Source: an uncultured Candidatus Saccharibacteria bacterium
GTDB lineage: Bacteria > Patescibacteriota > Minisyncoccia > Phycocordibacterales > PCTT01
Assembly (NCBI GenBank): GCA_964566505.1
Contig: CAZMIM010000002.1
Span: forward strand, 46,529 to 110,528
Length of the DNA stretch: 64,000 bases
Direction: 5' to 3'
Shown: positions 4,585 through 52,383 of the stretch, piece after piece
Numbering within the stretch: position 1 is the first letter of the stretch
Layout of the letters: every line of letters starts with the position of its first letter
The notes under the pieces: generated by a model
What the model was told of the DNA's origin: nothing
Seen by the model: the letters and a program-made list of their open reading frames with translations, nothing else
The model's database searches: none
Position numbers and translations under genes: made by a program

Positions 4585-5073
4585 TTATGCCTTACTCTCA
4601 GCGATTGCATTGATTACTCGTGCAAAACCGCTAATTGGTGAATTAATAATCTGTACAAATTGTCCTCGTAGAACATCAAGACCTGGAATCTGTGCAATCT
4701 CTGTGATTTCCTCTTTTGAAAGAAGTTTCTTTTCAAATACTCCACCGACTAGTGCAATATTTTCCTTGTACTTCTTTTGGAACTCATAGATTTCGCGAGC
4801 AGAACCAGTTTCATCATCTGAGTATGCAATAGCAATCTCTCCATCAAGTGCTGGTGCCTCTCCTTCAAATGAAGTGTCAGCGAGCGCTCGGTGAATCAAA
4901 CTCTTCTTTGCAACATAGTATGATACTCCGCTATCTCGAAGCGCACCTCGCATAGCAGTTGTGTCATCTACATTAAGTCCGTGAAAGTTCACAAACGCAA
5001 TAGAAGTAGCATTCTCAAATATATCTTTGAGTTTTGAAACAATCTGTTCTTTTTTCTCTTTTGTAATTGCCAT
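4585..5073 (-). CDS. rplJ: 50S ribosomal protein L10
   Basis: 162-aa ORF with L10 similarity (VNFHGLNVDDTTAMRGALRDSGVSYYVAKKSL). It directly precedes rplL. Confidence 0.9.
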   Translation of the reverse strand: MAITKEKKEQIVSKLKDIFENATSIAFVNFHGLNVDDTTAMRGALRDSGVSYYVAKKSLIHRALADTSFEGEAPALDGEIAIAYSDDETGSAREIYEFQKKYKENIALVGGVFEKKLLSKEEITEIAQIPGLDVLRGQFVQIINSPISGFARVINAIAESKA

Positions 5074-8924: not shown

Positions 8925-9058
8925 TGGGCGACCACCGGGACGCTGCGCTATCTCACTCGCTCTAAAACGCTCTTTAAGAACCCACGGTTCTCAACGCTTC
9001 GCTGCTCTCCTCCACGGGAAAACTAGAGTTTTCCCGACCCCTTTCCTGTTCGATTCCC
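8925..9058 (-). repeat. tRNA-linked conserved element, copy A (downstream of tRNA-His)
   Basis: In the tRNA sense it starts GGGAATCGAAC (the reverse complement of the tRNA T-loop GTTCGATTCCC). It ends TCCCGGTGGTCGCCCA, identical to the last 16 nt of the tRNA-His gene region. The ~100-nt core is shared with 14746-14876 and 21635-21751. Confidence 0.8.
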
Positions 9059-9750: not shown

Positions 9751-9771
9751 AGTGCTAAAACAATAACAAAA

Positions 9772-9803
9772 CCCCGTCTGTGTGTCTACACAGACGGGGT
9801 TTT
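9772..9803 (-). terminator. Terminator hairpin; identical 28-nt hairpin at 11864-11891
   Basis: CCCCGTCTGTGT-GTCT-ACACAGACGGGG followed by TTTTG on the minus strand. Confidence 0.65.
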
Positions 9804-9808
9804 GGACT

Positions 9809-11788
9809 TTATCTACCAAACAATGACTTTACTACTACTTTGAAAGCATTTTCAATTGCATATACTGCTGTAGCAAATTGAGATTTCTTTTGTGTTTCTT
9901 CAACAAAACCAAAACTGCTACGAAGACCTATTGAATACTCAAGAATTTTCTCTGCATCTATTGAGTTAATCTCACCACTATCATCTACGTCTGCAACAAG
10001 TTGAGCTTTTGCCGAAAGAAGCTCTGTGCCGTTTATATGCTGTGATACAAGAGCTGCATCATGTGATGTAACGCTTCCATCAAAGTTTACATCTCCATAA
10101 ATAAGATCTCGTGCTGGTATTTGCTCCACAATACCTATTGCATGCGCATTTACAATACGTGCATCAAGCATGGTAATTCGTGTATCACGATTTACATCTG
10201 AAAGCTCTTGTTGATAATCAGTTAGTGTTGAATTACCACTGACAAAACCTGCAATAAGACCTGCGTCATACGAAGTAATTTTTCCATCAAGAGAAACATC
10301 ACCCCTAAAACTTGTTGTAACATCTCTCACAACAACATTAAGTGAGTGTCCCTTGCCTCTTACAAAAGAGTTGTCACCATAAGTTGCTTCTACAACTACA
10401 GTGTATGTGTCTTCTGGTAGATTTTCTGGAAGTTTATAAATGTACTCTCCATCATTAATAGTACCTCTAACAACTGTATATTTATTAGCTCCCCAAAGTT
10501 CAATATCAATAGAGGCATCTAGGGGAACATTGAAAGAATTCCATGCAAAACTTACCGTATGTCCAGGATAACGCTCACCCTGATGTCCACTCACCGTTAT
10601 TGAAGGTTCTCCTACCTCAGGATTAACAACATTGAGTGAATGTCCCTTACCTCTTACAAAAGAGTTGTCGCCATAAGTTGCTTCTACAACTACAGTGTAT
10701 GTATCTTCTGGTAGATTTTCTGGAATTGTGTAGTTGTATAGACCTTCATTTTTAATACCCCTAACAACCGTGTATTTATTAGCTCCCCATAGTTCAATAT
10801 CAATAGAGGCATCTGTTGGAATATTTTCTGAAGTCCACACAATACTTACATCATCTCCTGGATGTCGGTATCCCCACGCTCCGCTCACATTAATTAATGG
10901 ATCTCCTGCCTCGGGATTAACTATTTTAAGTGGATACCCACTACCCTCTACAAGAGGCTCTGTATCATATGAACCAACAAATATTGTATAGTCACCTTCT
11001 GGAATATTTTCTGGAATTGTGTAGTTATACAATCCATCATTTTCCGTGTCGCTTACTACAACAAAACCTTTTTCTTTTGAAATATAAATATCAATAGGGT
11101 TGTTTTTCGGCACACCAACTGAATCCCAAGTAATACTTACTGTATCTCCTGGATGATACTCTCCCCAAACTCCATCAACCTTTATTGATGGAGTTGATAC
11201 TGAATTATTCTTAGGATTATTTGATGTATCTGAATTATCGTAATTTCCATAGCCAATACTTCCATCTATATCATCTTTAACAATAGAAACTCCCCCTATG
11301 GTGTCACACACTCGCATCGCACCCACAACCGCACACGTTTTTATTGCGTAGGTCCCTTCCGGAACAAATACTCCAGAAGCTGTGTACCCACCGTTGTCCC
11401 ACACATAAAAGCCAGAATTTTGCATTTGTGCAATTCTGTATTGTAAAGCCCCATTTATAAGGGTTATGTCCACAAGACTATTTGCTGCTATGTCTTCTGT
11501 CTCCCATTCAAAAACTATATTCTCCCCTAGGGTAAACACATCGTTTGAACTAGGTTCTGTTAACAAAATGTCATAATCAACTCCATAGGAATTATTAGTA
11601 CTAATGTTATTTGAACCAGAATCATCTCCTAAGAGAACATTTCGTATTTGTGTAACTACTGTGGTATCTGCACCAAATGCATTAAGTAAACTTGTAATTG
11701 CATTCACCTGCGCATCAGATAATGCATATGACACTGCTGGGACAGCAAAAAATGCAATAAGCATTATTGTAAGAAAAATCTTTTTCAT
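9809..11788 (-). CDS. Secreted surface protein with three tandem ~98-aa domains and two C-terminal dockerin-type repeat pairs
   Basis: Signal peptide MKKIFLTIMLIAFFAVPAVSYA. The domain repeats contain YTVVVEATYGDNSFVRGKGHSLNVV. Dockerin-like Ca-binding loops: GDVSLDGKITSYD, DVNRDTRITMLD, GDVNFDGSVTSHD, DVDDSGEINSID. Confidence 0.75.
   Translation of the reverse strand: MKKIFLTIMLIAFFAVPAVSYALSDAQVNAITSLLNAFGADTTVVTQIRNVLLGDDSGSNNISTNNSYGVDYDILLTEPSSNDVFTLGENIVFEWETEDIAANSLVDITLINGALQYRIAQMQNSGFYVWDNGGYTASGVFVPEGTYAIKTCAVVGAMRVCDTIGGVSIVKDDIDGSIGYGNYDNSDTSNNPKNNSVSTPSIKVDGVWGEYHPGDTVSITWDSVGVPKNNPIDIYISKEKGFVVVSDTENDGLYNYTIPENIPEGDYTIFVGSYDTEPLVEGSGYPLKIVNPEAGDPLINVSGAWGYRHPGDDVSIVWTSENIPTDASIDIELWGANKYTVVRGIKNEGLYNYTIPENLPEDTYTVVVEATYGDNSFVRGKGHSLNVVNPEVGEPSITVSGHQGERYPGHTVSFAWNSFNVPLDASIDIELWGANKYTVVRGTINDGEYIYKLPENLPEDTYTVVVEATYGDNSFVRGKGHSLNVVVRDVTTSFRGDVSLDGKITSYDAGLIAGFVSGNSTLTDYQQELSDVNRDTRITMLDARIVNAHAIGIVEQIPARDLIYGDVNFDGSVTSHDAALVSQHINGTELLSAKAQLVADVDDSGEINSIDAEKILEYSIGLRSSFGFVEETQKKSQFATAVYAIENAFKVVVKSLFGR
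10331..11210 (-). repeat. Intragenic tandem repeats, period ~294 nt (three copies)
   Basis: 10331-10431 and 10625-10725 differ at only 5 positions in ~100 nt. The rest of each unit and the third unit are much more diverged. Confidence 0.75.
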
Positions 11789-11863: not shown

Positions 11864-11891
11864 CCCCGTCTGTGTGTCTACACAGACGGGG
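11864..11891 (-). terminator. Second copy of the 28-nt hairpin
   Basis: CCCCGTCTGTGTGTCTACACAGACGGGG, identical to 9772-9799, just after the stop of the 11898-12338 gene. Confidence 0.55.
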
Positions 11892-11897
11892 TTGAGG

Positions 11898-12338
11898 TTA
11901 TTCCTGAGGATTATTTGATTCGTATATATCAATAAAGCCATCTGATGCTTTATATCTTTCTTCGAAATGTTTTACATTATATCTTTCTTTATACATCTCC
12001 ATTTCCCTGTCGAAAAACCCTAAACCACTTACAAACAAAACCCTATCAGAAAAAGATAAAGGAAATAATTTTAAAATACCCTTCATCCATTCATCACATG
12101 CTCCGAAGTTGTTTCCAATTACAACCACGTCAGGGTCGAAATGTTCAATGGCATCACAAACTTGATCAAAAAACCCATCCTCAAACTGTTTAGCATGCCG
12201 GTTGGGCAAATCGACACGATTTTCAAGCCAGCAGGGAATGAGTTCATAGCCAAACTGCTTTAGTTTATACTCAAACATTTCGAGCAATCTATCCCACACC
12301 CCAGACTGTTCAGTGAAGAGAACTTTAATAGTTGTCAT
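11898..12338 (-). CDS. Hypothetical protein
   Basis: ORF with its start placed at MTTIKVLF. It has an alpha/beta-looking pattern (IKVLF...DPDVVVIGNNFG). No family recognised. Confidence 0.45.
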   Translation of the reverse strand: MTTIKVLFTEQSGVWDRLLEMFEYKLKQFGYELIPCWLENRVDLPNRHAKQFEDGFFDQVCDAIEHFDPDVVVIGNNFGACDEWMKGILKLFPLSFSDRVLFVSGLGFFDREMEMYKERYNVKHFEERYKASDGFIDIYESNNPQE

Positions 12339-12428
12339 GACGAATAACCTTGTGTTTATGAATGTTCTATTTCGGGTGCACAATACAATAAAAAATATCC
12401 AATAGCAAGTATTGGGATTTATTCATTT

Positions 12429-12516
12429 TGGTGCCCAGGACAGGAGTCGAACCTGCACATCCGTAATGGACATATCCCCCTCAAGGATACGCGTCTACCA
12501 GTTCCGCCACCTGGGC
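12429..12516 (-). tRNA. tRNA-Leu (anticodon GAG), class II with long variable arm, CCA encoded
   Basis: Acceptor GCCCAGG/CCTGGGC, anticodon arm TATCC-TTGAGGG-GGATA, 3' end ...GGGCACCA. Confidence 0.85.
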
Positions 12517-12576
12517 ATGTAGATGTATTATGCAGAAAAAAGTAACTATTTCAATCCAAATTTACTTTTAGTCTAT

Positions 12577-12596
12577 ATGTACAGTTAACTGTACAT
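12577..12596. promoter_or_regulatory. 20-bp perfect palindrome, TrpR-operator-like (downstream copy)
   Basis: ATGTACAGTTAACTGTACAT; compare the E. coli trp operator core GTACTAGTTAACTAGTAC. Confidence 0.55.
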
Positions 12597-12634
12597 GTAT
12601 GATAACTCTCCTGAAAATCAAAAGTAGTTTTTGA

Positions 12635-13051
12635 TTATCGTTTACCGGTATGATCGTTCAACCAATTCCACCTTCCACGACCTCTGGGTGGCATCCCCAC
12701 ACTTATTACCTTTCCTAGAAATGTTGTAAAATTTTCTACGTCTTTTTTCTTTTCTATTGTTTTTATTATGTTATCAAAACTCCCTTTTTCATACTCATCT
12801 TGTATTTTCCCAATAGTAACCCTACTGACTTTTAATGTTTCTTGAATGACTGAAGTGGGTATATTGTCATGAACTAATAGAATTATAGCGAGTCGTTTTT
12901 GGAACATTATAGTTTCTGAATATGTGAAAAAATCATAAAAAAATCCATCTATTTGTTTTTTGGTGGAAATATATCCAAGCACGCTAGTAAAGTAGTTTTT
13001 GAGCGCTTCTTTTATTTTAGGAGATACATCTATTTTTGATACATTTGTCAT
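12635..13051 (-). CDS. TrpR-related YerC/YecD-like DNA-binding protein
   Basis: 138-aa ORF. The pattern FQKRLAIILLVHDNIPTSVIQETLKVSRVTIGKI resembles the YerC/YecD (Trp-repressor-like) HTH. It is flanked by identical palindromes. Confidence 0.6.
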   Translation of the reverse strand: MTNVSKIDVSPKIKEALKNYFTSVLGYISTKKQIDGFFYDFFTYSETIMFQKRLAIILLVHDNIPTSVIQETLKVSRVTIGKIQDEYEKGSFDNIIKTIEKKKDVENFTTFLGKVISVGMPPRGRGRWNWLNDHTGKR

Positions 13052-13079
13052 GAATATATTCTAATATTTAAATTGTGAT

Positions 13080-13099
13080 ATGTACAGTTAACTGTACAT
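13080..13099. promoter_or_regulatory. 20-bp perfect palindrome, TrpR-operator-like (upstream copy)
   Basis: ATGTACAGTTAACTGTACAT, 28 nt upstream of the regulator's ATG. Confidence 0.6.
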
Positions 13100-13174
13100 A
13101 TAGGAACATTGTTATTTTAAGTTTTTTAAAACACCTCGGTTAAATAAGTGTTTCTTTCAACAAAAAAGAGGAGA

Positions 13175-13798
13175 TTATTTCTCCTCTGTTTCTGTTTGTT
13201 CCCCGCCTGAATGATCTTCAGATCGGGCAGGTTCTGTTGAAACTTCTTCTGTAGTTTCTGTTGTTGGTTCCTCTGCTGGAGTCTCTGGTGTGCCCTCGTC
13301 CTGAGGAGTCTCTGTTGTGCTCTCGTCCTGCGTAGCCTCTGGCGTAGCAGTAGCTTCTTGAGCCTTAGCTTCAGCTTCTTGTGCCTCTTGCTCAGCTCGT
13401 GCCTTTGATTCAATATCAGACTCAGTTGAAAGATCCATAAATCGTGAGCGTCGCATTTGTCGTCGAATCTGTTTCGCAGCCTTCTCTCGAATGTAGTAAA
13501 GCTTTGATCGTCGAACTTTAGCTCGTTTTACAATCTCAATCTTATCAATCATTGGAGAATATAGTGGGTAGATTTTCTCTACACCAACACCACCAGACAC
13601 ACGACGAACAGTAAATGTTCCTCCTGCCTCTTTCCCATGTTTTCGAGCAAGCACTACTCCCTCGAATACCTGAAGTCGAGTTTTTCCTTTATCTTCGATT
13701 TTTTGGTGTACGCGAACAGTATCTCCAGTTCGGATATCCAAATTACGCCGTTCTTCAACGTTTACTGGTGAAATAATGTTGTGCAAAATCTGACTCAT
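13175..13798 (-). CDS. rplS: 50S ribosomal protein L19 with ~80-aa acidic C-terminal extension
   Basis: The N-terminal ~120 aa are canonical L19 ([31 protein letters not shown]...[20 protein letters not shown]). The tail is rich in E/T/A/P/Q. Confidence 0.9.
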
Positions 13799-37379: not shown

Positions 37380-37855
37380 TGCGCGTTATTGCTTTTGACC
37401 CTGGATACGATAGATGTGGGGTCGCTATTTTAGAGAAACAAAAAGGAAAAGAGGTTGTTTTGTTTTCAGGTTGTATAGAAACAAACAGAAAGGATTCTTT
37501 AGATGTTCGTGTTTCTGATATAGGAAAAGAGGTCGAGGAGCTTATTTTAAAACATAAACCCTCTCACCTTGCTCTTGAAACACTCTTTTTTAATATAAAC
37601 AAAAAGACGGCAATTGATGTTGCCCAAGCACGAGGTGTTTTGCTTTACCTTGGTGGCAAACATAGTCTTCGTGTTTGTGAATACACACCTTCTGCAATAA
37701 AAGTTGCTGTTACAGGACACGGTAGAAGCGATAAAAAGCAGATTATTTCAATGATTCCTCGCTTAGTTTCAATAGAAAAGAAAATACAACACGACGACGA
37801 ATGGGATGCCATCGCGGTGGGTATTACATGTATTGCGAGTGAAAAAGAGTATTAA
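37379..37855 (+). CDS. ruvC: Crossover junction endodeoxyribonuclease RuvC
   Basis: MRVIAFDPGYDRCGVAIL...LALETLFFN...AIKVAVTGHGRSDK.Q...M are the RuvC catalytic segments. Confidence 0.9.
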   Translation: MRVIAFDPGYDRCGVAILEKQKGKEVVLFSGCIETNRKDSLDVRVSDIGKEVEELILKHKPSHLALETLFFNINKKTAIDVAQARGVLLYLGGKHSLRVCEYTPSAIKVAVTGHGRSDKKQIISMIPRLVSIEKKIQHDDEWDAIAVGITCIASEKEY

Positions 37856-39042
37856 GAAATAACAACTTTAATAAAGCGTGTTTTCCCTATTTTGTATACA
37901 CCACTTTCTTGAATGGTGTATTTTTTGTTTGTTATTTTTTCGTTATTGTCTGTATTTTTTACAGCCCCTTGATCAACCAGTCTATTGAATTCTGATTTTG
38001 ATGAAACAAGTTCTTTCTTAAGAGCAACATCACAAAGCATAGCCCCTTTTTCTACACTTACTTCTTCTATGTCTTCTGGTACACCACCTTGAGCAAATGT
38101 ATTCTCAAAATCGTCTCGTGCATTATCAGCATCTTTTGAAGAGTGATAAAAAGAAACAATTTCGTGAGCTAGTCTAACTTTTAGGTCTTTTGGGTTTACT
38201 CCGCTTTCAAGGTCTTTTTTGACCTCCTCAACCTCTTGTATAGACACAAAAGTTAACAGCTCAAAACCAGACACAATCATGTCATCACTCCAGCTCATTA
38301 TTTTTCCAAACATTTCTTGTGGGGAGTCTTGGAACGTAACCATGTTACCTGTTGTCTTCCCCATTTTTTTACCTTCTTTATCCGCAAAGAGTTTTGTGGT
38401 TATCACAAACTTCTCTTTATCACTCATTTGCTTCATAAGCGTTCGCCCTGCAAGCATATTAAATGTTTGATCATTGCCTCCAATTTCTCCATCAACATCC
38501 ATATGTACGCTGTCATACCCTTGCATAAGAGGATACATAAACTCATGAATATATAGAGGTGTTCCAGAGTCAATTCTTCGCTTAAACAGGTCTCGTTTAA
38601 TCATTTGCTCAACAGTAAAGTGAGATGCAATGTTTATAACATCAGAAAAAGATAGTTTCGAAAGCCATTTATTGTTGTTTTTTAGTATTGCTTTATTTCT
38701 ACCAGAAAAAGATAGAAATTTTGACGCTTGTTTTTTGTATAGTCGAGCATTTTCTTTTACCAACTTAGGAGTAAGTCGTTCTCGAACCTCTGTTTTATCA
38801 GGATCTCCTGAGAGCGCTGTAAAATCTCCAATAAGAAGGATAATCTCATGTCCCATGTCTTGAAGTTCTTTTAGTTTTTTCAAAACAATCGCGTGTCCGA
38901 AATGAAGCGTTGGACCTGTTGGATCAATGCCGAGATACACCTTCAACCTCTTACCTGAAGTAAGCTCTTTTTCTACAAACTCTTTGTTTGGATATACATT
39001 CTCGACTCCTCGAGAAAGAAACTCTTCTATATTGGTCTTCAT
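37852..39042 (-). CDS. tyrS: Tyrosyl-tRNA synthetase
   Basis: HIGH-type motif (TLHFGH), KMSKS-type motif (KMGKT), and a C-terminal S4-like domain. The start is placed at MKTNIEEF. Confidence 0.9.
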   Translation of the reverse strand: MKTNIEEFLSRGVENVYPNKEFVEKELTSGKRLKVYLGIDPTGPTLHFGHAIVLKKLKELQDMGHEIILLIGDFTALSGDPDKTEVRERLTPKLVKENARLYKKQASKFLSFSGRNKAILKNNNKWLSKLSFSDVINIASHFTVEQMIKRDLFKRRIDSGTPLYIHEFMYPLMQGYDSVHMDVDGEIGGNDQTFNMLAGRTLMKQMSDKEKFVITTKLFADKEGKKMGKTTGNMVTFQDSPQEMFGKIMSWSDDMIVSGFELLTFVSIQEVEEVKKDLESGVNPKDLKVRLAHEIVSFYHSSKDADNARDDFENTFAQGGVPEDIEEVSVEKGAMLCDVALKKELVSSKSEFNRLVDQGAVKNTDNNEKITNKKYTIQESGVYKIGKTRFIKVVIS

Positions 39043-39142
39043 AATTGTTATTTTAGAATATATATGTATCATACCAAACCACAGAAAATCGTGTATCTTG
39101 TACTGAAATATCATTCATTGCGATGTATACTTAACACTACAT

Positions 39143-41650: not shown

Positions 41651-42748
41651 CTATTTGTTCATCGGCATTGCGATGTAGATAAAACTAGAATCCCCTACCC
41701 CTTGAACATAAATAGGTTTTCCAGGCCCTATTTTAAAAACCAAACTGTCTGTCGTTATTGATTGAAAACAATCAAAGACATTACGATAACTAAAACTAAC
41801 TGTCTGCGGGTCTCCTGAGAGCGCTGCAGAGACATTAATTGAGCTTTCTCCAAGCTCTTTATTGCTTGTTTTTATAATAAACTTTTTCTCTTTTGGTTTT
41901 ACCTCGAATGTAATTCTATTGAATTTGTCTGAGAAAATATTTGCCTGCTTCATAACATCAATAACATCTTGTTTTAGAACCACACACTCTGTTTCATACT
42001 CTTTTGGAATAATCTGCCTATAATCAGGAAATACTCCATCAACAACTCTTGATGTTACATACAAATCACCAATAGAAAATCCTATTTGATTTTGAGTAAT
42101 ACTTATCTCAACTTCACCTTTAATATCATCAAAAACCTTAATAACATCTGAAACATTTTTGAATGGAATCAAAATTGATTCAAAATCATCAAGTGATTTA
42201 AATGAAACACTCTTTTCTGCAAGTCTAAATGAATCTGTTGCAGCAAACACAACAGAACCTGACTCGTTATATATATAAACACTCGCAAGCTCTGGTTTCA
42301 TACTTTGCGGTGAAGCACTGTACCAAACAGATTTTAGACCATGAATAAATTTATCAATAGGAAGTTTTAGTGTTTTATCAGACACAACACGAGGAATAGA
42401 AGGAAATTCTTCATGAGGATATGTTTTTACTTTTGTTTGTGAATTATTTGTAGTTACAAGAAGAGTATTATCTTTTGTTTCGAGAGTAATTTTTGAATCT
42501 TGAGTTATGTTCCCAATAAAACTCTTGAGAAGCTCGGCAGGAACAGCTACTGTGCCCTCTTCTTCAACTTTTACAGGTATTTTTATCTCAACTCCCAGAT
42601 CAAGATTTGTTGCTCGAATAGTGAGAGTGTTATTTTTTGCTACAAGCAAAATATATTTCAATACAGGTAACGTAACATTTTTACTTGTTACCTTATCTGC
42701 TTTTGAAATTGCATTCTCTATTTTTTCTTTTAAACATTCTAACTTCAT
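41651..42748 (-). CDS. dnaN: DNA polymerase III beta sliding clamp
   Basis: 365-aa ORF immediately downstream of dnaA with a collinear DnaN pattern (PVLKYILLVAKNNTLTIRATNLDLG...). Confidence 0.9.
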   Translation of the reverse strand: MKLECLKEKIENAISKADKVTSKNVTLPVLKYILLVAKNNTLTIRATNLDLGVEIKIPVKVEEEGTVAVPAELLKSFIGNITQDSKITLETKDNTLLVTTNNSQTKVKTYPHEEFPSIPRVVSDKTLKLPIDKFIHGLKSVWYSASPQSMKPELASVYIYNESGSVVFAATDSFRLAEKSVSFKSLDDFESILIPFKNVSDVIKVFDDIKGEVEISITQNQIGFSIGDLYVTSRVVDGVFPDYRQIIPKEYETECVVLKQDVIDVMKQANIFSDKFNRITFEVKPKEKKFIIKTSNKELGESSINVSAALSGDPQTVSFSYRNVFDCFQSITTDSLVFKIGPGKPIYVQGVGDSSFIYIAMPMNK

Positions 42749-43012
42749 GGTTGTGTATTATTTTCTTTTTTAAATATATTATTACTATTATTAGGGCTGT
42801 TGATATGTGGGAAAGTTGTAAATATAAATCTATATAAGGATGTATTTGAAAATATTTTTTGTGAAAAACACTGCTTATATGAGGATTAATGGTGATAATT
42901 TGGTTAATAACTTTGACTGATTGATACTTATTAAATACTTTCAACATTTACTTTCTTTTTTATACCTAAGTTATTCATATTTGAAATCACCACCTATGCA
43001 CATATTTATCCC
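42749..43012. other. Very AT-rich dnaA-dnaN spacer, candidate part of oriC (DNA-unwinding region)
   Basis: 264 nt, strongly AT-rich by eye. Only weak DnaA-box-like sites are present (TGTGGGAAA at 42806-42814). Confidence 0.4.
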
Positions 43013-44359
43013 CTATAACATATTTCTTATCTGGTGGATTTCTTGAGATAACACACTGTCTGTCTCTAACTCTTTCTTTATCTTTTCATACGAGTGAATT
43101 ACTGTTGTATGGTCCCTACCCCCAAGTTTCTGGCCAATTGTTGGGTATGCGATGTTATAGTCTTCACGAAGTATATACATAATAATTTGCCGAGGTTTTA
43201 CCACTTCTTTCTTTCTAGTCTTTTTATAAACATTCTCCTCTTCTATATTGTAAAAATCAGTAATGATTCGAATAATATCCTCAATAGGAGCTGTTCTTTT
43301 TGATTTAATACTGTTTCGTACAAGATGTTTTACCTCATTTAAAGAAAGTTCTCTATCTTTTAGTTGTGATTGAACAACAACAACATTAAATACCCCCTCA
43401 AGTTCTCGGATGTTGCTCCCAATCATAGATGCAAGATAATCAAGAACCTCTGGGTTTAGAGTTATGTTGTGTTGTTTTGATTTTGCTTGAAGAATCGCAA
43501 CTCTAGATTCGTGGTCTGGTGGAGAAATATCAACTACCATACCTGCGCTAAATCGAGATTTAAGTCTATCTTCCATATTTTGAAGATAGTTTGGGTGCAT
43601 GTCAGACGAGAAAATAATCTGCTTGTTGTTGTCGTATAGAGTATTGAATAGATGAAACAGCTCTTCTTGGCTCTTCTCTTTCTTAGAAAGAAACTGAATA
43701 TCATCCATAATCAAAACATCGTATTTTCTATACTTTTCTTTAAAGAGGTTCATTTTATTTTGACGAATTGCATTTGTTACATCAACAACAAACTTCTCAG
43801 ATGTCATATAAAACACTTTTATATTCGAATATGACTTCTTTAGGTGGTTTCCTACAGACTGAATAAGGTGTGTTTTACCACAACCAGTGCGTCCATATAC
43901 AAAAAGAGGGTTATATACCACACCAGGACTCTTTATGATTGCCTGAGAGGCTGCATATGCAAGCTCATTGAATGGTCCAACAATAAAAGAATCAAAAGTA
44001 TATCGAGGGTTAAGGTTGTCTTCCCTGTTTATGTATACATCACTTAGTGGTAGAGCTCCTTTTGTGAGATCAAGGTCACTTGAGTGTTCTGCTATTTCTT
44101 TTGCTTCAGGTTTTTCTCTTGTTACAACGTACTCAACACTTCGCACATGCTCTACAAGTTCTCTAAGGGTTTTGAGAATAAACTTATGATATTTCTCAGA
44201 TAGCCATGTTTTTACAAATTCATTTGGTACTCCTATATATACAACTCCATCTTCTTCCTTTAAAATATATGTCTCGCTAAACCATGTGTTAAATGTTGCT
44301 TTTGTTACATTTAGTTCTGCTTCTACGAGTACGTTTTCCCAAAGTTGTTTTGTATCCAT
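43013..44359 (-). CDS. dnaA: Chromosomal replication initiator protein DnaA
   Basis: Walker A GRTGCGKTHL, Walker B LIMDDIQFL, sensor motifs, and a C-terminal DnaA-box-binding domain (IGQKLGGRDHTTVIHSYEKI). The start is placed at MDTKQLWENV. Confidence 0.92.
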   Translation of the reverse strand: MDTKQLWENVLVEAELNVTKATFNTWFSETYILKEEDGVVYIGVPNEFVKTWLSEKYHKFILKTLRELVEHVRSVEYVVTREKPEAKEIAEHSSDLDLTKGALPLSDVYINREDNLNPRYTFDSFIVGPFNELAYAASQAIIKSPGVVYNPLFVYGRTGCGKTHLIQSVGNHLKKSYSNIKVFYMTSEKFVVDVTNAIRQNKMNLFKEKYRKYDVLIMDDIQFLSKKEKSQEELFHLFNTLYDNNKQIIFSSDMHPNYLQNMEDRLKSRFSAGMVVDISPPDHESRVAILQAKSKQHNITLNPEVLDYLASMIGSNIRELEGVFNVVVVQSQLKDRELSLNEVKHLVRNSIKSKRTAPIEDIIRIITDFYNIEEENVYKKTRKKEVVKPRQIIMYILREDYNIAYPTIGQKLGGRDHTTVIHSYEKIKKELETDSVLSQEIHQIRNML

Positions 44360-44581
44360 GTCTAAAAAGTTAGTGTGTCTATTATATAATGATGGGGAAA
44401 ACGCTATAACTTGTGGAAAGTATGTAAATATGTTAATAATGTGTGGATACAATACCAGGATTAGTATATAAAAGTATGTCAACAACCCCATACCAGAGCA
44501 AAGCACGGTACAGGGCGAGAAATAGACAAAAACATACTCCTAGTATATAGTCTTAAGGTAAAAACTTGTAAATAATACGTT
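44360..44581. other. dnaA-rpmH intergenic region with DnaA-box-like sites (candidate oriC / dnaA autoregulation)
   Basis: TGTGGATAC at 44443-44451 is the reverse complement of GTATCCACA, 8/9 to TTATCCACA. TGTGGAAAG at 44412-44420 is 7/9. Confidence 0.45.
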
Positions 44582-44716
44582 ATGTCAACAACATATCAGC
44601 CCAAAAAAAGAAAAAGAAGTAAAACACACGGGTTTTTAACTCGTTCAAAAACAACTTCTGGGAAAAATATTCTCAAAAGTCGTCGAAGAAAAGGCCGAAA
44701 GAAGCTTTCAGTGTAA
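44582..44716 (+). CDS. rpmH: 50S ribosomal protein L34 (not in the ORF track; 44 aa)
   Basis: ATG at 44582 reads [44 protein letters not shown], the canonical L34 pattern. It is followed by rnpA. Confidence 0.85.
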
Positions 44717-44721
44717 ATACT

Positions 44722-45057
44722 ATGTCAACACACAAGCACAGAGTTTCATCAAAAGACTTCTCTGTAGTTGTTTCAACTGGAAAAACAGTTAGAAACGGTG
44801 TGTGTACTCTTAAATATATAGAAAATGAGACACCACAATCCCCTACTTTGGTGTCTTTTTCTATACCAAAATCAGTTGAAAAAGGTGTAGTAAAAAGAAA
44901 TAAGCTAAAAAGAGTGGGTCGAGAAGTCCTTCGTTCTGTATATAAAGATATAAAACCAGGTTTTGTTTGTGTGGTTTTTTGTTATAGCAACAACAAAGAA
45001 GACATAACAATAGACATGGTTAGAGAGCTTTTTGAAAAAGCAGAGCTTCTAAATTGA
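44722..45057 (+). CDS. rnpA: Ribonuclease P protein component
   Basis: 111-aa basic ORF between rpmH and yidC with the RNR-like motif KRNKLKRVGRE. Confidence 0.8.
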   Translation: MSTHKHRVSSKDFSVVVSTGKTVRNGVCTLKYIENETPQSPTLVSFSIPKSVEKGVVKRNKLKRVGREVLRSVYKDIKPGFVCVVFCYSNNKEDITIDMVRELFEKAELLN

Positions 45058-45087
45058 AAAGAAGCTTAAATCAGGTACAATAACACA

Positions 45088-45858
45088 ATGATTGGATCAA
45101 TTTGGAACACTATTATATATAATCCGTTGTACAACGGATTCATTTTTTTAGCGGACATTCTACCATGGGCAGACCTTGGTGTGATTATTATCCTATTTAC
45201 TCTTGTTATTAAGCTTATTCTCTTCCCTCTTTCAATTCGCGCAACAAAAACACAACAAGCGGTGCGAACTATTGAACCAGAGATTAAAAAGCTCCGAGAA
45301 AAATATAAAAATGATAAACAAACACAAGCTCTCGAGGTTATGGAGCTCTATAAAGAGCACAATATAAAGCCTTTTTCTGGATTTCTTACTATTTTGATAC
45401 AAATTCCTATTATTTTTGGATTGTATTTTATTTTCCTACGAGGTGGACTACCAATGGTTAACGCAGACATATTATATTCCTTTGTTAAAGTTCCAGAGAT
45501 GATAAATACCACATTTCTCGGAGTGATGAATGTTACAGGAAAGAGCATTATATTGGCCCTGTTGACAGGTATAACTCAATTTTTCCATACAAAAATATCA
45601 TTTAAGAATCAAGACGATTTAAATGATAAAAAACTCGGAGAAGGTTCTTTGAAGGATGATTTTGTAAAGACAATGAAACTACAAATGAAATACGTGCTAC
45701 CTGTTTTTGTAGCGGTTATTTCATACACACTTTCAGCTGCAATCGCACTGTATTGGACAACAAGTAATATTTTTCATATAGTACAAGAGCTATATGTGGA
45801 GCGGATGGTACGTAATCCTAAGAAAAAGGATGAGTCCCCTGCCCCACAAAGCTCTTAG
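45088..45858 (+). CDS. yidC: Membrane protein insertase YidC
   Basis: Short Gram-positive-type YidC (LIKLILFPLSIRATKTQ...M..L.PE.KKL.EKYK.D.Q....E.M.LYKEH..NP..G). Confidence 0.9.
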   Translation: MIGSIWNTIIYNPLYNGFIFLADILPWADLGVIIILFTLVIKLILFPLSIRATKTQQAVRTIEPEIKKLREKYKNDKQTQALEVMELYKEHNIKPFSGFLTILIQIPIIFGLYFIFLRGGLPMVNADILYSFVKVPEMINTTFLGVMNVTGKSIILALLTGITQFFHTKISFKNQDDLNDKKLGEGSLKDDFVKTMKLQMKYVLPVFVAVISYTLSAAIALYWTTSNIFHIVQELYVERMVRNPKKKDESPAPQSS

Positions 45859-45859
45859 T

Positions 45860-46339
45860 ATGAATGAAATCCAACAAATAAAACAACTTATAGAGGAAAC
45901 ACTAAATAAGATGGGTATTTCATACACATCAGTATCTGTTGTTGATACAGAGCTTCCTGACTACACTAAGTTTGATATTGAAACACAAGAGAGTGGAATG
46001 CTTATAGGAAAAGATGGAGAACACCTGTCAGCGCTATCTTTTGTTTTGAGAAAGATGCTTGAGAAGCAGTTTGATACCCAAGAAACACCACGATTTTATA
46101 TTGATATTGGAGGATACCAAAAAACAAAAATTGAGAAGATTCAAAAAGTTGCAAAGATTATGGCAGAAAGAGCAACTTCGTTTAAGCGAGATATAGAACT
46201 CCCACCAATGACAGCGTACGAGAGAATGGTTATACATTCTACTCTCAAAGAAATGCCAAACATTGAGACAGAATCACAAGGAAAAGGAAGAGATAGAAGG
46301 ATTTATGTTCGCTTCAAAGAAGAAACACCCATTATTTAA
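45860..46339 (+). CDS. jag: Jag/KhpB-type RNA-binding protein (KH + R3H domains)
   Basis: LIGKDGEHLSALSFVL (KH-like) and LPPMTAYERMVIHSTL (R3H). The start is placed at MNEIQQIK, right after the yidC stop. Confidence 0.8.
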   Translation: MNEIQQIKQLIEETLNKMGISYTSVSVVDTELPDYTKFDIETQESGMLIGKDGEHLSALSFVLRKMLEKQFDTQETPRFYIDIGGYQKTKIEKIQKVAKIMAERATSFKRDIELPPMTAYERMVIHSTLKEMPNIETESQGKGRDRRIYVRFKEETPII

Positions 46340-46362
46340 AAAACCGCCAGAGGCGGTTTTTT
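46338..46362. terminator. Bidirectional terminator between jag and the convergent T4SS-like operon
   Basis: AAAAAA-CCGCC-AGA-GGCGG-TTTTTT. Confidence 0.65.
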
Positions 46363-47575
46363 AGAGCTCTATTCCCCACGCACTTAAGTCTCTTTTGTTT
46401 ATGAAGTAAAGATAATTTTCATCTTCATTGATAATAAGATTTGTTCCATCTATAAATTGAGAAACATCTTCTTGTGGGGTCATGATTTTGTCTGTAGCAA
46501 AACTGTTTATATCAACTTTCCAAAATACGTCATTAAAGAAAAACTCTCCTTTGTACCAATCATCAGGATAGAGTGCTTGTTGTATAAACTCAGGGACAGC
46601 ACAGTATAGTGATTCTTCTTCGAACCACGTACATTTCTCAGGAAGTGTTGTTATTGGAAGCTCCTGTGAGGTGTCTTCTGAGACATTGTACAGATATGTA
46701 TCGAAGCCACCAAAGATGTTTGTTCGTGCATACAAAACAAAAGAGCCTTCTGGTGATACGAGTGTTGTAAGGCCATCTGCAGACAGGATTTTATTAAATG
46801 AGCGGGATGAAACAGAGAAAAAATATAGTGAACCGTGTGTGTTTGCGGTTGGCGCGCTTGTGAATGCTATTTGGTTTGGGCTAAACCACTGCAGGTTCCA
46901 GTTTTTGTAAGAAGAGTTAAAGATATTTCGAGTGTTTCCGGTTGTTTGTGTGTAGTCTATACCAACAACATCCAAAACACGATCTATTAAGTAGAAATAT
47001 TTATTCCCTGCTGGTGATACAGCCACAGAAGAAATGTTGTTTGGTAAAAATTCTGTTTCAACACCGTTCTCATTAAGCACTCCCCACACACTCTCGATAC
47101 TTTCATAATCTGTATTTATATATTGATACAACACAGAGCCATTTTCACCTACAAGCGCTCTTTGAGAGCTTGGTACGGTTGTGTTCGAAACACGTTCTGT
47201 TTGTTTTGAGCTTGTGTCGTGCTCATATATATGACCGGTTGCCCTATTTACTATATATACACCATTTTCAGAAAGTCCAATTCCAGATGATGGTTGGTTG
47301 TGGGCTTTAAATACATTTTTAGCACTTCCACCGCTTACCCCAACAGAAGAAACAGCGCCTGAGTTTGTGCTCTCAAAAGGATCTTGTGTGGACTGGCCAC
47401 CTCCTCTATCGGTGTTCTCAGTTGGTTCTCCAAAAGGAAACAAGTCTACAGAGTCGTCTTGTCCCATTAAATCAATATTGTTATTTCCACCAATTCCACG
47501 AATTACAAAGAACCCCACAAGAGCAAGGATGAGAATGACAAGTATTAGAATTATAAAAAATCGCTTTTGGAACAT
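46361..47575 (-). CDS. Membrane-anchored protein, beta-propeller-like (last gene of the T4SS-like operon)
   Basis: N-terminal TM (FFIILILVILILALVGFFVI). It has repetitive beta-strand-rich composition reminiscent of TolB/PD40-type propellers. Its ATG lies 1 nt after the upstream stop. Confidence 0.45.
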   Translation of the reverse strand: MFQKRFFIILILVILILALVGFFVIRGIGGNNNIDLMGQDDSVDLFPFGEPTENTDRGGGQSTQDPFESTNSGAVSSVGVSGGSAKNVFKAHNQPSSGIGLSENGVYIVNRATGHIYEHDTSSKQTERVSNTTVPSSQRALVGENGSVLYQYINTDYESIESVWGVLNENGVETEFLPNNISSVAVSPAGNKYFYLIDRVLDVVGIDYTQTTGNTRNIFNSSYKNWNLQWFSPNQIAFTSAPTANTHGSLYFFSVSSRSFNKILSADGLTTLVSPEGSFVLYARTNIFGGFDTYLYNVSEDTSQELPITTLPEKCTWFEEESLYCAVPEFIQQALYPDDWYKGEFFFNDVFWKVDINSFATDKIMTPQEDVSQFIDGTNLIINEDENYLYFINKRDLSAWGIEL

Positions 47576-47576
47576 A

Positions 47577-48824
47577 TTAATCGTTATATACGGAAAAGTG
47601 GTCTGCAGAAATATGTGTCCCAAAGAACTTTATTTCTCCACCGCCGGGTATTGATATCCCCTCAAATGCTTCTAGTATTTTATCTGCTCTATTTCTTTCT
47701 CTTATTTCATACACAGCTCTTAACCCAGAATCGCTTGCAGCTTTAAAGAAAGACATCAGATATGCAACTTGTGTGTTTAAATCTGCAGTTTGAACCAGAA
47801 CAGCAGACTGGCCTGTGAAGTTCGCATCAAAACATGTTCCGTTGTAGTGACACTGACTCGCATGATTCCACTCTGGCGGGAAAGCCTCGGTTATTTGCCA
47901 CTGGATTTGCTGCTGACTCAGTGTTGTGTGTAAATTTTTAAGTTTTGGAATAAGATCTTTGTGGATACCCGTGTTCGAATCAGATTTTATAGGAAAATTA
48001 GCGTCTATTTCTTTAAAAATATCCAAACAATTATCTTCTCCTCCTAAGCACATTGCCCCAGAATCACTTGGCGACACAGCTTCATTTCCATCATCATCAA
48101 AATATATACAATCATCATAAACCTGAAAAAAGTTTTCTAGGTCAAGGTTTATAAAATTATTTGCCATAAGCGCGTATTGAGCGGTTTTACATTCTCCTTT
48201 GCTTTCAAAAGGTCCATATAAATCGTTTGTTAAGTGTACTCGAAAGTAAAAACCAGGGCCTCTGAATTGATTTTTGACCAGCGTTCCAAAGTTTGTTGTA
48301 GATGCTGTAGCCGGGCTGATACCCTTAAGTGAAGTGAGGTCTGGGTTTATTGTGTTTAGCAGCAGCACTGAAAGAAGAGCAATACCCAACCCCCAAAGAG
48401 CACGACGAACATCCGAAAGAGCATTGCTCTTCCCAGTAACAGAGCCTTGTGTCATATACTTTGCACCAGCAATAACAATCATAAGCACAGCAAAAGCAGA
48501 CGCGAGCCCGATTGATAGTTTGAGAATACTGTTTACAAAATCAGCAAATGAACGCTCGTCTCCGATTGGTAAAACAGAAACATATCTATTATTTTCTGCG
48601 TCAAAACGAAGTTCCTGGCCTTCTATATTTATAGGGGCTAGTAAAACATAATCAGATGTTCCATTTGGTGTTGTTCCATATATATATGCTTCACATTCAC
48701 TTTGAGAAAGACCCTGGTATAGCATACATTCTTCTATAACCGTTCTTTGTGCGAAAACAAAAAATGGGGTTAGTAGAAAATAAAATACAATAAAACTAAA
48801 TAAGATTTTTTTCATAATATTCAT
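47577..48824 (-). CDS. VirB2/TrbC-like pilin-type protein fused to a ~230-aa C-terminal domain
   Basis: Signal peptide, then the two-helix hairpin FADFVNSILKLSIGLASAFAVLMIVIAGAKYMTQG...RRALWGLGIALLSVLLLNTINPDL, typical of TrbC/VirB2. The C-terminal domain carries SQCHYNGTCFDANF ... SADHFSVY. Confidence 0.55.
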   Translation of the reverse strand: MNIMKKILFSFIVFYFLLTPFFVFAQRTVIEECMLYQGLSQSECEAYIYGTTPNGTSDYVLLAPINIEGQELRFDAENNRYVSVLPIGDERSFADFVNSILKLSIGLASAFAVLMIVIAGAKYMTQGSVTGKSNALSDVRRALWGLGIALLSVLLLNTINPDLTSLKGISPATASTTNFGTLVKNQFRGPGFYFRVHLTNDLYGPFESKGECKTAQYALMANNFINLDLENFFQVYDDCIYFDDDGNEAVSPSDSGAMCLGGEDNCLDIFKEIDANFPIKSDSNTGIHKDLIPKLKNLHTTLSQQQIQWQITEAFPPEWNHASQCHYNGTCFDANFTGQSAVLVQTADLNTQVAYLMSFFKAASDSGLRAVYEIRERNRADKILEAFEGISIPGGGEIKFFGTHISADHFSVYND

Positions 48825-49516
48825 TATATATCACCAAATATTAGACGTAATTGCTGAGAAGCTCTAGAGAAAAGGTTGTTTTTATCACGAGCGGACAAAC
48901 TAATAGAAACAGAGCCTCCTACCCCACCATCTCGCAGAGTTATTTTTGGAGAATTATTATTTATTAAGTTTCTATTGATTTTCCACTCATAATCAACAAA
49001 ATAAGAATCTCTTTCTGAGGCAAAGAAGAACGGATACGCCTCGAGCGTAATTTCTGTGTCTGTTGTGTTTATCTCATCACCCCATGATTGTCCAAAAAGA
49101 GTTCCAAGAGCGGGGTTGTTTTTGTAAATATATATTTCTGGGTCTGATACTTGGAGAGAAATACTTTTATTTGAAATTACAGCGCCGTTCTCATCCACTA
49201 GCTCAAGCGTTACTGTATTATTTCTAGGAGAGCTTGTGAACACAAAAGTATCTTTACCAACACCAGATTGCTCAGCAATACCGTAGTTGTTAAATCTCCA
49301 TCGATAATTTAGTGATTGAGGATTTACCACATCAACAATCGCAACAACACGAACACTAGCGCCTACAGTAATAAGGGGTCGGCCTGTATAAAATGGCGGT
49401 GTATATGTTTCTGCTTCCCAAAGCAGATCAATATCATCTGCGGTCTGTGCACTTACTACATTAGAAAAAGAAAGAAAAACAAAAAGTATTATTGTTATGT
49501 AGAGTATTTTTTTCAT
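48824..49516 (-). CDS. Secreted hypothetical protein (T4SS-like operon)
   Basis: Signal peptide MKKILYITIILFVFLSFSNVVSAQ, beta-rich. The start and stop codons overlap the neighbouring genes by 1 nt. Confidence 0.5.
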   Translation of the reverse strand: MKKILYITIILFVFLSFSNVVSAQTADDIDLLWEAETYTPPFYTGRPLITVGASVRVVAIVDVVNPQSLNYRWRFNNYGIAEQSGVGKDTFVFTSSPRNNTVTLELVDENGAVISNKSISLQVSDPEIYIYKNNPALGTLFGQSWGDEINTTDTEITLEAYPFFFASERDSYFVDYEWKINRNLINNNSPKITLRDGGVGGSVSISLSARDKNNLFSRASQQLRLIFGDI

Positions 49517-49920
49517 TATGCTGCTCTATTTATAAGTCGCTCTTTTCTAGCAACTCGCTCTTGTTGGACACGAGAAAGTGTTTGGTTTGTTTTTTGTGCA
49601 CTTTGTTTCTCAGTATCCTCTTCTCGAGTTGCTTTGATGTTTAGAAATACTACTGTCGTAAGCTCAGGCAAAGCATTCACGATTGGTATAAGACCAACAA
49701 TCATTCCAACAACAGCTCCTTGCGCCATCTTTTTGTTTTGTGTGTATGGTGCGCCATTTATAATGAACCACACAGGAAATATTATCCAGCTCGCGAGCCA
49801 TGTTGCCCAGTTTGCAACAGTCCCTACCGCAAGGGCGGTAAGCAAAAGCTCTAGCAAGTCAATAAAGAGTGCTGTTCCGAGCATAAGCCATTTTGTGATG
49901 TCGCTGATTCGGTAGTCCAT
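49516..49920 (-). CDS. Small 3-TM membrane protein (T4SS-like operon)
   Basis: 134-aa ORF with three hydrophobic helices and a basic C-terminal tail. It has 1-nt overlaps on both sides. Confidence 0.5.
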   Translation of the reverse strand: MDYRISDITKWLMLGTALFIDLLELLLTALAVGTVANWATWLASWIIFPVWFIINGAPYTQNKKMAQGAVVGMIVGLIPIVNALPELTTVVFLNIKATREEDTEKQSAQKTNQTLSRVQQERVARKERLINRAA

Positions 49921-51737: not shown

Positions 51738-51738
51738 A

Positions 51739-52383
51739 TTATTTTAGTGGAATTGGTTTTTCTAGATCTCCAGGGTTGAATATTTTGTAATAAAGTTCGA
51801 TAAGCTCTTCTGTGCCAAGTCGTGCCACTTGTACTCCAGTACGAGAAAGACCTTGCTCTACTATTCCCACCCTTTGCTCAAGCTGTGAAAGGTATTCTTG
51901 GAATGTCTGATCATCATTTTGTGTGCTCTGACCCCCTTTTTTCTTTCCTGGAAGTAGTGATGTGATACCTCCCTTTTGTTTTATAACAGGAGGAGTATAA
52001 GGAACCACAACAAAGAAAGATTTTGACATAATATCTGACCCTTCAGTGAACTTTTTGATGAAGTTTATATATTCCTGGGTCTGAATCTTCATCAAATCAT
52101 TACTTTGTTTTGTTTGGAGCTCTTCTAGAAGCGCTATATACGGTCTGATATCAAGCTCTCGAGATTGGATGAAGAACTGCACAGAGAAATCTAGCGAGTT
52201 TAGGAAGTTTTGAAACTGGAACAATACAGACTCCTGCTCATCACGAGATTTAAGTGCAAGGTTTATAGACGAAGCCATCAAAACAGCCCTAAGCGACTTG
52301 TCTTTAAGTACCACAACGCCGCCTCGAATCTCCTCGATAGGTACAAAATTTTGTGCTGATTGTGCGTTTTGTGTAGTAGCCAT
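51739..52383 (-). CDS. Hypothetical protein resembling a free-standing VirB4 N-terminal-type region
   Basis: FVPIEEIRGGVVVLKDKSLRAVLMASSINLALKSRDEQESVLFQFQNFLNSL parallels the N-terminal pattern of VirB4 proteins. The stop is followed by T-ATG of virB4. Confidence 0.4.
   Translation of the reverse strand: MATTQNAQSAQNFVPIEEIRGGVVVLKDKSLRAVLMASSINLALKSRDEQESVLFQFQNFLNSLDFSVQFFIQSRELDIRPYIALLEELQTKQSNDLMKIQTQEYINFIKKFTEGSDIMSKSFFVVVPYTPPVIKQKGGITSLLPGKKKGGQSTQNDDQTFQEYLSQLEQRVGIVEQGLSRTGVQVARLGTEELIELYYKIFNPGDLEKPIPLK

Follow-up and report, generated by a model that had tools for sequence, protein, structure and literature searches.

Transcriptional regulation in the Parcubacteria and in other bacteria of the Candidate Phyla Radiation (CPR) is poorly characterized. 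The closest described relatives of the regulator considered here are TrpR of Escherichia coli and YerC/YecD, i.e., HisR. Operators of the TrpR family are 20-bp palindromes whose consensus is specific to the lineage, and the TrpR and HisR regulons take in autoregulated regulator genes, autoregulation being frequent for HisR, which is reported to carry a tyrosine at the position of TrpR Arg69 (PMC9413887). A second point of reference is LacI, which autoregulates via a roadblock at O3, located at the 3' end of lacI (PMC3711431). In a 64-kb stretch of DNA (the window, meaning the whole stretch that was analyzed), a gene for a 138-amino-acid TrpR-like helix-turn-helix (HTH) protein lies between two identical 20-bp palindromes. 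From comparison with related loci we propose, with a probability of about 0.7, that this protein is an autorepressor having one operator in its promoter and a second one at the 3' end of its gene. The literature searched held no description of this Parcubacteria-wide subfamily, nor of the architecture proposed here, in which coevolving perfect palindromes form a conserved pair around the gene of an autorepressor of the TrpR family.

Two identical palindromes bracket a TrpR-like gene

The locus is made up of the following features, numbered by their position in the window.

12577-12596, no strand: downstream copy of the 20-mer palindrome ATGTACAGTTAACTGTACAT, 38 nucleotides (nt) past the regulator stop codon (12597-12634 between) and 22 nt 5' of the predicted -35 hexamer of tRNA-Leu
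12635-13051, minus strand: open reading frame (ORF) of the regulator, 138 amino acids (aa), TrpR-like HTH protein
13058-13086, minus strand: predicted sigma-70-type promoter of the regulator, TGTACA (13086-13081), 17-nt spacer, TAGAAT (13063-13058)
13080-13099, no strand: upstream copy of ATGTACAGTTAACTGTACAT, 28 nt before the regulator ATG (13052-13079 between)

An earlier description made from the letters alone (the sequence-only reading) had reported two identical 20-mers, 28 nt from the ATG and 38 nt from the stop codon; both were confirmed in the sequence, at exactly these spacings. They are the only two occurrences of ATGTACAGTTAACTGTACAT in the window, where even a tolerance of 3 mismatches gave no further match (0.00 expected from shuffled sequences) and where the 10-bp core CAGTTAACTG, with up to 1 mismatch allowed, recurs at the same two places only. 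Taken together, both copies constitute an inverted repeat of 24 nt without a mismatch (CTAT plus the 20-mer at 12573-12596, the 20-mer plus ATAG at 13080-13103), and the upstream palindrome is in itself perfect over 24 bp (13078-13101). Beyond these, the window contains just four perfect palindromes whose arms reach 8 nt or more, none of them related to ATGTACAGTTAACTGTACAT. The sequence-only reading would have been overturned by a palindrome scattered over many unrelated sites, and this is not what the window holds: two copies in 64 kb do not make a dispersed repeat of the repetitive extragenic palindrome (REP) or miniature inverted-repeat transposable element (MITE) type, which would be present in many copies at unrelated sites.

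The same reading had seen a close resemblance to the E. coli TrpR operator. This held for the central AGTTAACT but not for the rest of the palindrome: compared in register, ATGTACAGTTAACTGTACAT matched the E. coli core GTACTAGTTAACTAGTAC at 8/18 positions and the published TrpR consensus TGTAcTnGTnnACnAgTACA at 4/16 specified positions, because its GTAC arms lie 1 bp closer to the center. The likeness to the trp operator is thus superficial. As the center of the palindrome varies within the family (GATTAATC, GATATATC, GGTTAACC and others), there is no specific link to tryptophan either. In agreement with the remark that the segment carries no tryptophan genes, no tryptophan biosynthesis family was found among the about 60 ORFs of the window, nor were histidine pathway genes found in the window. 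A class-I tRNA synthetase of the W/Y type is encoded at 37852-39114, and no palindrome site occurs there.

The regulator belongs to a distinct protein family

The window protein marginally passed the Pfam Trp_repressor model (PF01371; 30.1 bits with the cut-off at 27; E = 5e-7) and failed the NCBIfam model of YerC/YecD (TIGR02531; 19.4 bits against a cut-off of 42.2). An indexed search with this single protein retrieved only itself and one relative, and exhaustive and profile searches were then used. The exhaustive HMMER search returned 624 cluster representatives at E < 1e-3, 117 of them at E < 1e-10; nearly all were 130 to 145 aa long and aligned end to end, and most had a precomputed PF01371 match on record. 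The homologues that carry a name all come from the Parcubacteria group of the CPR (Kaiser-, Niyogi-, Zambryski-, Giovannoni- and Sungiibacteria) and are annotated as hypothetical, YerC or Trp-family regulator. The family consensus reads MTNVSK...E.IMLAKRLA...LKVS.STV...G[LM]PP.G.GRWKWL, with M[TP][NH][VI]SK at the N terminus, the invariant residues E46, K52, R53 and T79 and, toward the C terminus, a conserved G[LM]PP.G.GRW motif not present in TrpR or YerC. Judged by these alignments, the regulator is a member of a distinct family of proteins of about 135 aa. An observation on the side concerned a 730-aa protein (P0072), in which 11 separate stretches matched the 138-aa query, suggesting a tandem array of TrpR-like HTH units.

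Searched against the Protein Data Bank, the family profile retrieved the YerC/HisR-type structures 3KOR, 3G1C and 3FRW at E of about 1e-7 and E. coli TrpR only at E of 0.07 to 0.2. In a pairwise profile alignment (hhalign) with the TrpR sequence, itself verified against strain MG1655, residues 14 to 85 aligned with TrpR residues 15 to 87 (E = 9e-6), and the equivalents of T44, E47, R54 and T81 were kept. The AlphaFold2 monomer model was all-helical with an HTH (predicted local distance difference test [pLDDT] of 83.8 overall and >90 for residues 11 to 100). Foldseek placed 3KOR, 3FRW and 3G1C at the top of the matches to this model, at probability 1.0 and with target-normalized template modeling (TM) scores of 0.7 to 0.8, followed by E. 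coli TrpR. That the gene encodes an HTH protein of the TrpR/YerC type, as had been read from the sequence, is thus borne out by Pfam, by the structure profile, by Foldseek and by hhalign. Concerning the L-tryptophan pocket (Thr44, Arg54, Thr81, Arg84, Gly85, Ser88), the equivalents of T44, R54 and T81 were conserved. That of R84 is a lysine in the window protein and apparently variable in the family, that of G85 is an isoleucine, and S88 falls outside the aligned block.

The bracket is conserved across the family

A metagenome scan provided 62 homologue loci, about 58 of which had both flanks open to examination. A palindrome was found at both ends of the gene in about 55 of these ~58 loci, and in about 55 the 14-nt cores of the two copies differed by no more than 2 nt within the locus. 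Many loci carried two identical 20-bp palindromes with a AGTTAACT center and differing arms, while a general palindrome scan showed the remaining ones to be bracketed by other centers (GATTAATC, GATATATC, GGTTAACC, AGTATACT, GATCGATC and AATGCATT). The upstream copy was located 0 to 60 nt ahead of the ATG, its downstream partner between -18 and about +80 nt around the stop codon. When the 20-mers of 30 distinct loci were compared, the mean Hamming distance was 1.4 within a locus (identical copies in 12/30) against 9.7 between loci. Of the perfect palindromes whose arms reach 10 nt or more, 92 lay at the ends of the regulator gene as opposed to 6 elsewhere in 249 kb. The lineage-specific cores were absent from 146 kb of farther flanks, and in 400 kb of related DNA they occurred only at the loci that the pattern scan had fetched and at other loci of the regulator family. 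E. coli trpR, used as a control, showed no bracket under the same test: its single operator is upstream, with no counterpart downstream.

Two loci illustrate the pattern. In a relative with 33% identity (L002), located between recJ upstream and an RNase H-like gene downstream, the gene was bracketed by palindromes with the same center, ACCAGCAGTTAACT(A/G)CTGGT. A third copy of this locus-specific palindrome was seen there within the coding region (5017-5036, codons 6 to 12). In a relative with 49% identity (L016), which shares rplS upstream and tRNA-Leu downstream with the window, AA(C/T)TTCAGTTAACTGAAGTT stood at both ends in place of ATGTACAGTTAACTGTACAT. Among closer relatives (L039 versus L062, and L059 and L065 versus L073), the same base change was found in both arms of both sites. 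The flanking genes, read from N-terminal sequences, included metG, gyrB, thrS, tatD, recJ and pgk and were conserved within sublineages, with rplS and tRNA-Leu, thrS and gyrB, or tatD and metG being kept together despite large divergence of the protein. As neighbor genes are kept within sublineages and as both L016 palindromes have changed their arms together, the comparison speaks for vertical descent rather than mobility: by sequence, the bracket is inherited vertically, with both copies changing in concert between lineages. The suggestion that the palindromes are the operators of the regulator itself is thereby strengthened; given a bracket in about 30 distinct loci and its concerted change, they very probably are. 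Apart from these loci, two paralogues on one contig of the size of a genome, 706 kb (L042 and L053, on Ga0208375_1000003), each had a palindrome pair of their own, with a common center, CGATATATCG, and differing arms (GATACG...CGTATC versus GCTTCG...CGAAGC).

Identical symmetric sites around a small HTH gene could also mark a mobile or invertible cassette, in which the palindromes would serve as recombination sites or terminal repeats in the manner of hix around hin or of REP elements around the REP-associated tyrosine transposase (RAYT). The protein does have weak matches to HTH_23, IS630-type HTH and resolvase-HTH models, the gene neighborhoods differ from one lineage to another, and in a Kaiserbacteria genome the 18-mer of the palindrome is part of a three-copy repeat. 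However, the flanked protein has an all-helical TrpR-like fold with no recombinase or transposase domain and no PADLOC or PHROG match to defense or phage families, and the window has just one copy of its gene. The 400 kb of related DNA contained neither empty sites nor solitary palindromes. Synteny persists within sublineages, and, on contigs from one species or from related ones, each conserved flanking gene that clustered pointed the same way relative to the regulator. We therefore consider a cassette highly improbable.

A search for covariation between residues and bases yielded a single suggestive pattern. Asp77 together with Arg81 (the positions of TrpR Ile79 and Thr83) occurred only where half-site position 6 was G, a pattern that is confounded by phylogeny; it suggests, in sequence terms, that these residues may read the half-site directly.

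The upstream site overlaps a predicted leaderless promoter

In the window, the -10 hexamer of the predicted promoter (TAGAAT) ends 6 nt before the ATG and the -35 hexamer (TGTACA) lies inside the operator arm; the center of the upstream palindrome, at about -38.5 relative to the ATG, places it over this hexamer. No Shine-Dalgarno (SD) motif was found at the regulator start. The same held for the relatives, with an SD-like motif in 0/41 distinct upstream regions and a TANNNT positioned exactly 6 nt before the start codon in 21/41 and 5 to 7 nt before it in 34/41. Since a -10 hexamer at 5 to 7 nt is combined with a lack of SD motifs, these mRNAs are probably leaderless (that of the window would start at 13051), and the upstream palindrome would thus be nontranscribed promoter DNA. 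In the 30 loci, the centers of the upstream palindromes ranged from -8 to -58, -18 being the most frequent. In relatives the palindrome overlaps the -35 hexamer, the spacer or the -10 hexamer.

Two further ideas about this region were rejected. A leaderless start is not a special feature of the regulator gene: over the whole window, an SD-like motif was present at 8/63 genes and a TANNNT 5 to 7 nt before the start at 17/63, which suggests that leaderless translation is widespread in the source organism. Likewise, the long upstream palindromes are not back-to-back leaderless promoters that share the start codon with a divergent tatD, because tatD starts 84 to 108 nt away.

The downstream site is tied to the regulator gene

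Three neighboring features give the context of the site.

12429-12516, minus strand: tRNA-Leu(gag), downstream neighbor of the regulator
12527-12554, minus strand: predicted tRNA-Leu promoter, TTGAAA-16-CATAAT, separate from the downstream palindrome
13167-13187, minus strand: canonical intrinsic terminator of rplS, AGAGGAGA-AATAA-TCTCCTCT followed by TTTTTTG

The genes upstream of the regulator in the window are those of L19 (rplS) and RluA, and an ORF without family match lies downstream. The rplS terminator insulates the regulator promoter from rplS read-through.

It had been suggested that the downstream copy might instead control the tRNA-Leu side, and this did not hold as a general role. 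A tRNA follows the regulator only in the window and in L016, whose tRNA promoter, read off the alignment, resembles that of the window (TTGAAG-17-CATAAT). The L016 site lies at a similar distance from the stop codon (34 nt, 38 nt in the window), but about 30 nt further from the tRNA promoter. Over the 30 loci, the center of the downstream palindrome was located at -2 to +72 nt relative to the stop codon, with the palindrome often overlapping the stop codon itself, and the gene that follows was frequently convergent, e.g., metG or gyrB. Because the site is fixed to the stop codon whatever follows, and because it has shifted away from the tRNA promoter in L016, the alignments place it with the regulator gene and not with the neighbor. 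The tRNA-Leu promoter is probably independent of the downstream palindrome.

A terminator scan called neither palindrome an intrinsic terminator, their stems being A+T-rich, and it found no intrinsic terminator for the regulator gene. Only 7/34 downstream copies were followed by a T-tract (6 or more T among the following 10 nt), which is no enrichment.

Copies of the 18-mer in other genomes

A scan of 596 Gb for the 18-mer retrieved single copies in Calothrix, Pedobacter, metagenome-assembled genomes (MAGs) of Clostridia and Pseudomonas adelgestsugas, fitting the estimate of about 9 chance matches. Two genomes held more than one copy. "Candidatus Kaiserbacteria" PFBH01 contains a three-copy intergenic repeat of about 110 to 400 bp that carries ATTTGTACAGTTAACTGTACAAAT alongside stretches rich in CCTAA/CTAAC (L004 at about 1980-2300, L005 at about 4640-5050 and L009 at about 2000-2460). 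The repeats had no Rfam match and no homologue of the regulator family nearby. One of them lies about 97 nt upstream of a gene for tryptophanyl-tRNA synthetase (TrpRS), and a fourth 18-mer (L010) lies 28 nt upstream of a gene for a ROK-type sugar kinase, both genes being identified by N-terminal sequence reading. The MAG CAXSFI01 bin.10 has two 18-mers (L008, 1879-1896, and L011, 4583-4600), with no detectable homologue nearby. These two share about 45 nt of similar flank, including an extra TTGTACATAT half-site 6 nt away, and are situated, by sequence reading, between rpmB and a DHPS-like gene and between prfA and prmC, respectively. Since the 18-mers of PFBH01 and CAXSFI01 lie away from homologues, other targets or derived elements may exist.

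These copies bear on the view that the protein works as TrpR or HisR do, sensing a metabolite and controlling other genes in the conventional way, with the downstream copy as the operator of a neighbor and the bracket as an accident of gene order. Autoregulated regulator genes do belong to the TrpR and HisR regulons (PMC9413887), the pocket equivalents of R54, T44 and T81 are conserved, the PFBH01 18-mers stand before the kinase and TrpRS genes, and the flanks examined are too short to exclude a small regulon. In contrast, the downstream copy is anchored to the stop codon irrespective of what comes next, which is often a convergent gene and only in the window and L016 a tRNA, and neither tryptophan nor histidine pathway genes are found in the window. 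Moreover, E. coli trpR lacks the bracket. We hence regard this explanation as very unlikely.

Other features of the window

The L19 protein (13175-13798, minus strand) ends in an acidic tail, about 90 aa long and rich in Thr, Glu and Ala, which is encoded by imperfect tandem repeats of 21 to 27 nt. A 28-nt G+C-rich hairpin, CCCCGTCTGTGTGTCTACACAGACGGGG, occurs with the same sequence at 9767-9804 and 11864-11891. It follows both a 659-aa dockerin/Ig-repeat gene (9809-11788, minus strand) and the ORF upstream of it (11898-12383, minus strand), so that identical terminator-like hairpins bracket the 659-aa gene. A second palindrome family, with a CTAG center (CGGGAAAACTAGAGTTTTCCCG, CGGGGAAACTAGAGTTTCCCCG and CGGGAGAAACTCTAGTTTCTCCCG at 9015-9036, 14831-14852 and 21658-21681), adjoins tRNA genes in each case (His, Val/Arg and Ser). 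Rfam matched only tRNAs in the window.

The replication-origin neighborhood, with dnaN, dnaA, rnpA, yidC and the gene of a Jag-like KH/R3H protein, is found at 41651-46339, about 30 kb from the regulator, and the lowest G+C content of the window (0.33) at 42 to 46 kb. An origin or terminus element at the palindrome locus was rejected, as the GC skew does not switch there and dnaA and dnaN are about 30 kb off. A cluster of large ORFs, mostly without Pfam match, extends from 46361 to 59430. Among its products are a TraG/VirB4-like P-loop ATPase (49920-51737) and a protein of the PrgI family (52386-52829), and the cluster is similar to the type IV secretion system of the conjugation type that has been reported in Patescibacteria.

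Discussion

We propose that a dimeric TrpR-fold HTH repressor would bind both flanking palindromes as its cognate sites. At the upstream site, which overlaps the -35 hexamer and, in relatives, the -35 hexamer, the spacer or the -10 hexamer, the bound protein would block RNA polymerase at the leaderless promoter, resulting in negative autoregulation. The downstream site could act in either or both of two modes. It may be an auxiliary operator that raises promoter occupancy through a loop of about 470 to 500 bp enclosing the gene, or the protein bound there may form a roadblock to transcription at the 3' end, a mode suggested by the lack of an intrinsic terminator of the gene and for which LacI at O3 is a precedent (PMC3711431). 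Looping between the two sites is plausible, and the choice between looping and a roadblock appears roughly even. The family-specific C-terminal helices (residues 93 to 135, pLDDT of 54 to 72) are, we infer from the model, a candidate bridging interface.

Several observations weigh against this proposal. The distance between the centers of the two sites, 503 bp in the window and 434 to 564 bp (median, 471) in the 30 loci, shows no helical phasing, although none is expected at such a length. To our knowledge, TrpR-family proteins are dimers that are not known to loop DNA. As far as the sequences tell, a regulator whose only detectable sites surround its own gene has no obvious output, so that other targets must exist or its function is something else. 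Kaiserbacteria PFBH01 has four copies of the same 18-mer, none near a detectable homologue and three of them inside the longer repeat. Finally, the self-complementarity of the palindromes continues for a mean of 4.2 pairs past the point where the two copies diverge (about 0.35 under the null), and close relatives show compensatory double changes in the outer arms (L017 versus L018 at position 11, L052 versus L058 at position 11 and L059 versus L065 at position 15). This outer-arm symmetry is not explained by a dimer that reads two half-sites independently; its source may be selection for intrastrand pairing, i.e., for a cruciform, or neutral homogenization of the arms by template switching.

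The same symmetry is an argument for the view that the palindromes are mainly nucleic acid structures, be it a cruciform or an RNA hairpin acting as terminator, insulator or stabilizer, with the protein binding the structure or being irrelevant. The arms (median, 14 nt; longest, 25/25, i.e., a 50-bp palindrome; long examples are L054 at 50 bp and L017 at 42 bp) are far longer than a 20-bp operator needs, A+T-rich centers (TTAA, ATAT, TATA) favor extrusion, some downstream copies resemble bidirectional terminators (e.g., L054 and L074), and as RNA the window copies would fold into hairpins of 8 to 10 bp. An RNA role cannot, however, explain the upstream copy, since this copy is in nontranscribed promoter DNA of a leaderless gene. 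The sense-strand mismatches are without G.U bias (14 G.T versus 14 A.C), and T-tracts are not enriched behind the downstream copies, whereas ordinary terminators with a GC stem and a T-tract exist elsewhere in the same genome. The RNA hairpin was rejected on these grounds. As for DNA structure, the palindromes of the window, at 20 to 24 bp, are short for extrusion, and template-switch "palindrome perfecting" could produce the symmetry without selection. In every lineage the palindromy runs through the center, which a two-fold symmetric protein needs and a hairpin loop does not. A structural role also leaves unexplained why one lineage-specific core is common to both copies and why a single gene is constantly flanked. 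Taken together, a mainly structural role is quite unlikely.

A related proposal is that intrastrand pairing through cruciform extrusion is itself under selection, as the copies stay self-complementary well past the core even in nontranscribed promoter DNA. The regulator and two cruciform-prone sites would then form a self-contained, gene-bracketing module that senses supercoiling or insulates the gene, or else an architectural element of the chromosome that acts chiefly on its own flanks. This we consider unlikely.

The autorepressor proposal concerns a family that is widespread in Parcubacteria-group genomes and has no described function, and the presence of two matched putative operators at both ends of their own leaderless gene is a conserved TrpR-fold architecture for which the literature searched offers no description. 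As the putative cognate sites can be read from each genome, binding and ligand screens can be designed immediately. The about 30 lineage-specific combinations of protein and palindrome, among them the two paralogues with different arms on one contig, constitute a natural record of how specificity coevolves. Whichever mechanism holds, they point to dozens of natural, mutually orthogonal, coevolved repressor-operator pairs as a possible source of orthogonal parts, and the symmetry beyond the common core bears on how small genomes keep long perfect palindromes.

With E. coli TrpR, the regulator shares a small all-helical HTH fold, a palindromic operator of about 20 bp over its own promoter and the central AGTTAACT of the trp operator. 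It differs in being 30 aa longer, with the C-terminal G[LM]PP.G.GRW motif, and in its distant profile relationship (E of only 0.07 to 0.2, as given above). Its putative operator does not match the trp operator in register, its surroundings contain no trp genes and trpR has no downstream twin. YerC/YecD, i.e., HisR, is nearer: 3KOR, 3G1C and 3FRW are the closest solved relatives by profile and by fold, the alignments map a consensus tyrosine of the family to the position of TrpR Arg69, and HisR operators too are 20-bp palindromes with a lineage-specific consensus. Unlike HisR, the regulator is about 135 aa long rather than under 105 aa, stays below the TIGR02531 cut-off and has no his genes in its window; its motif is centered on C-R-R-T-W-W-A-Y-Y-G, whereas the HisR-type operator is cacTTTAnnnnnnTAAAgtg, and a bracket of two matched sites has not been described for HisR. 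The arrangement itself is closest to that of lambda CI, with OL and OR around cI, and of LacI, with O1 and O3: there, too, the gene of the repressor lies between, or ends at, its own operators, and a distal site hundreds of base pairs away can raise occupancy or truncate transcripts. Tetramer and octamer interfaces are known for those repressors, while the present regulator is known from its sequence and a monomer model. In contrast to both systems, its sites are identical perfect palindromes at the two ends of a single 0.4-kb gene, and the arrangement is conserved across a whole family rather than at one locus.

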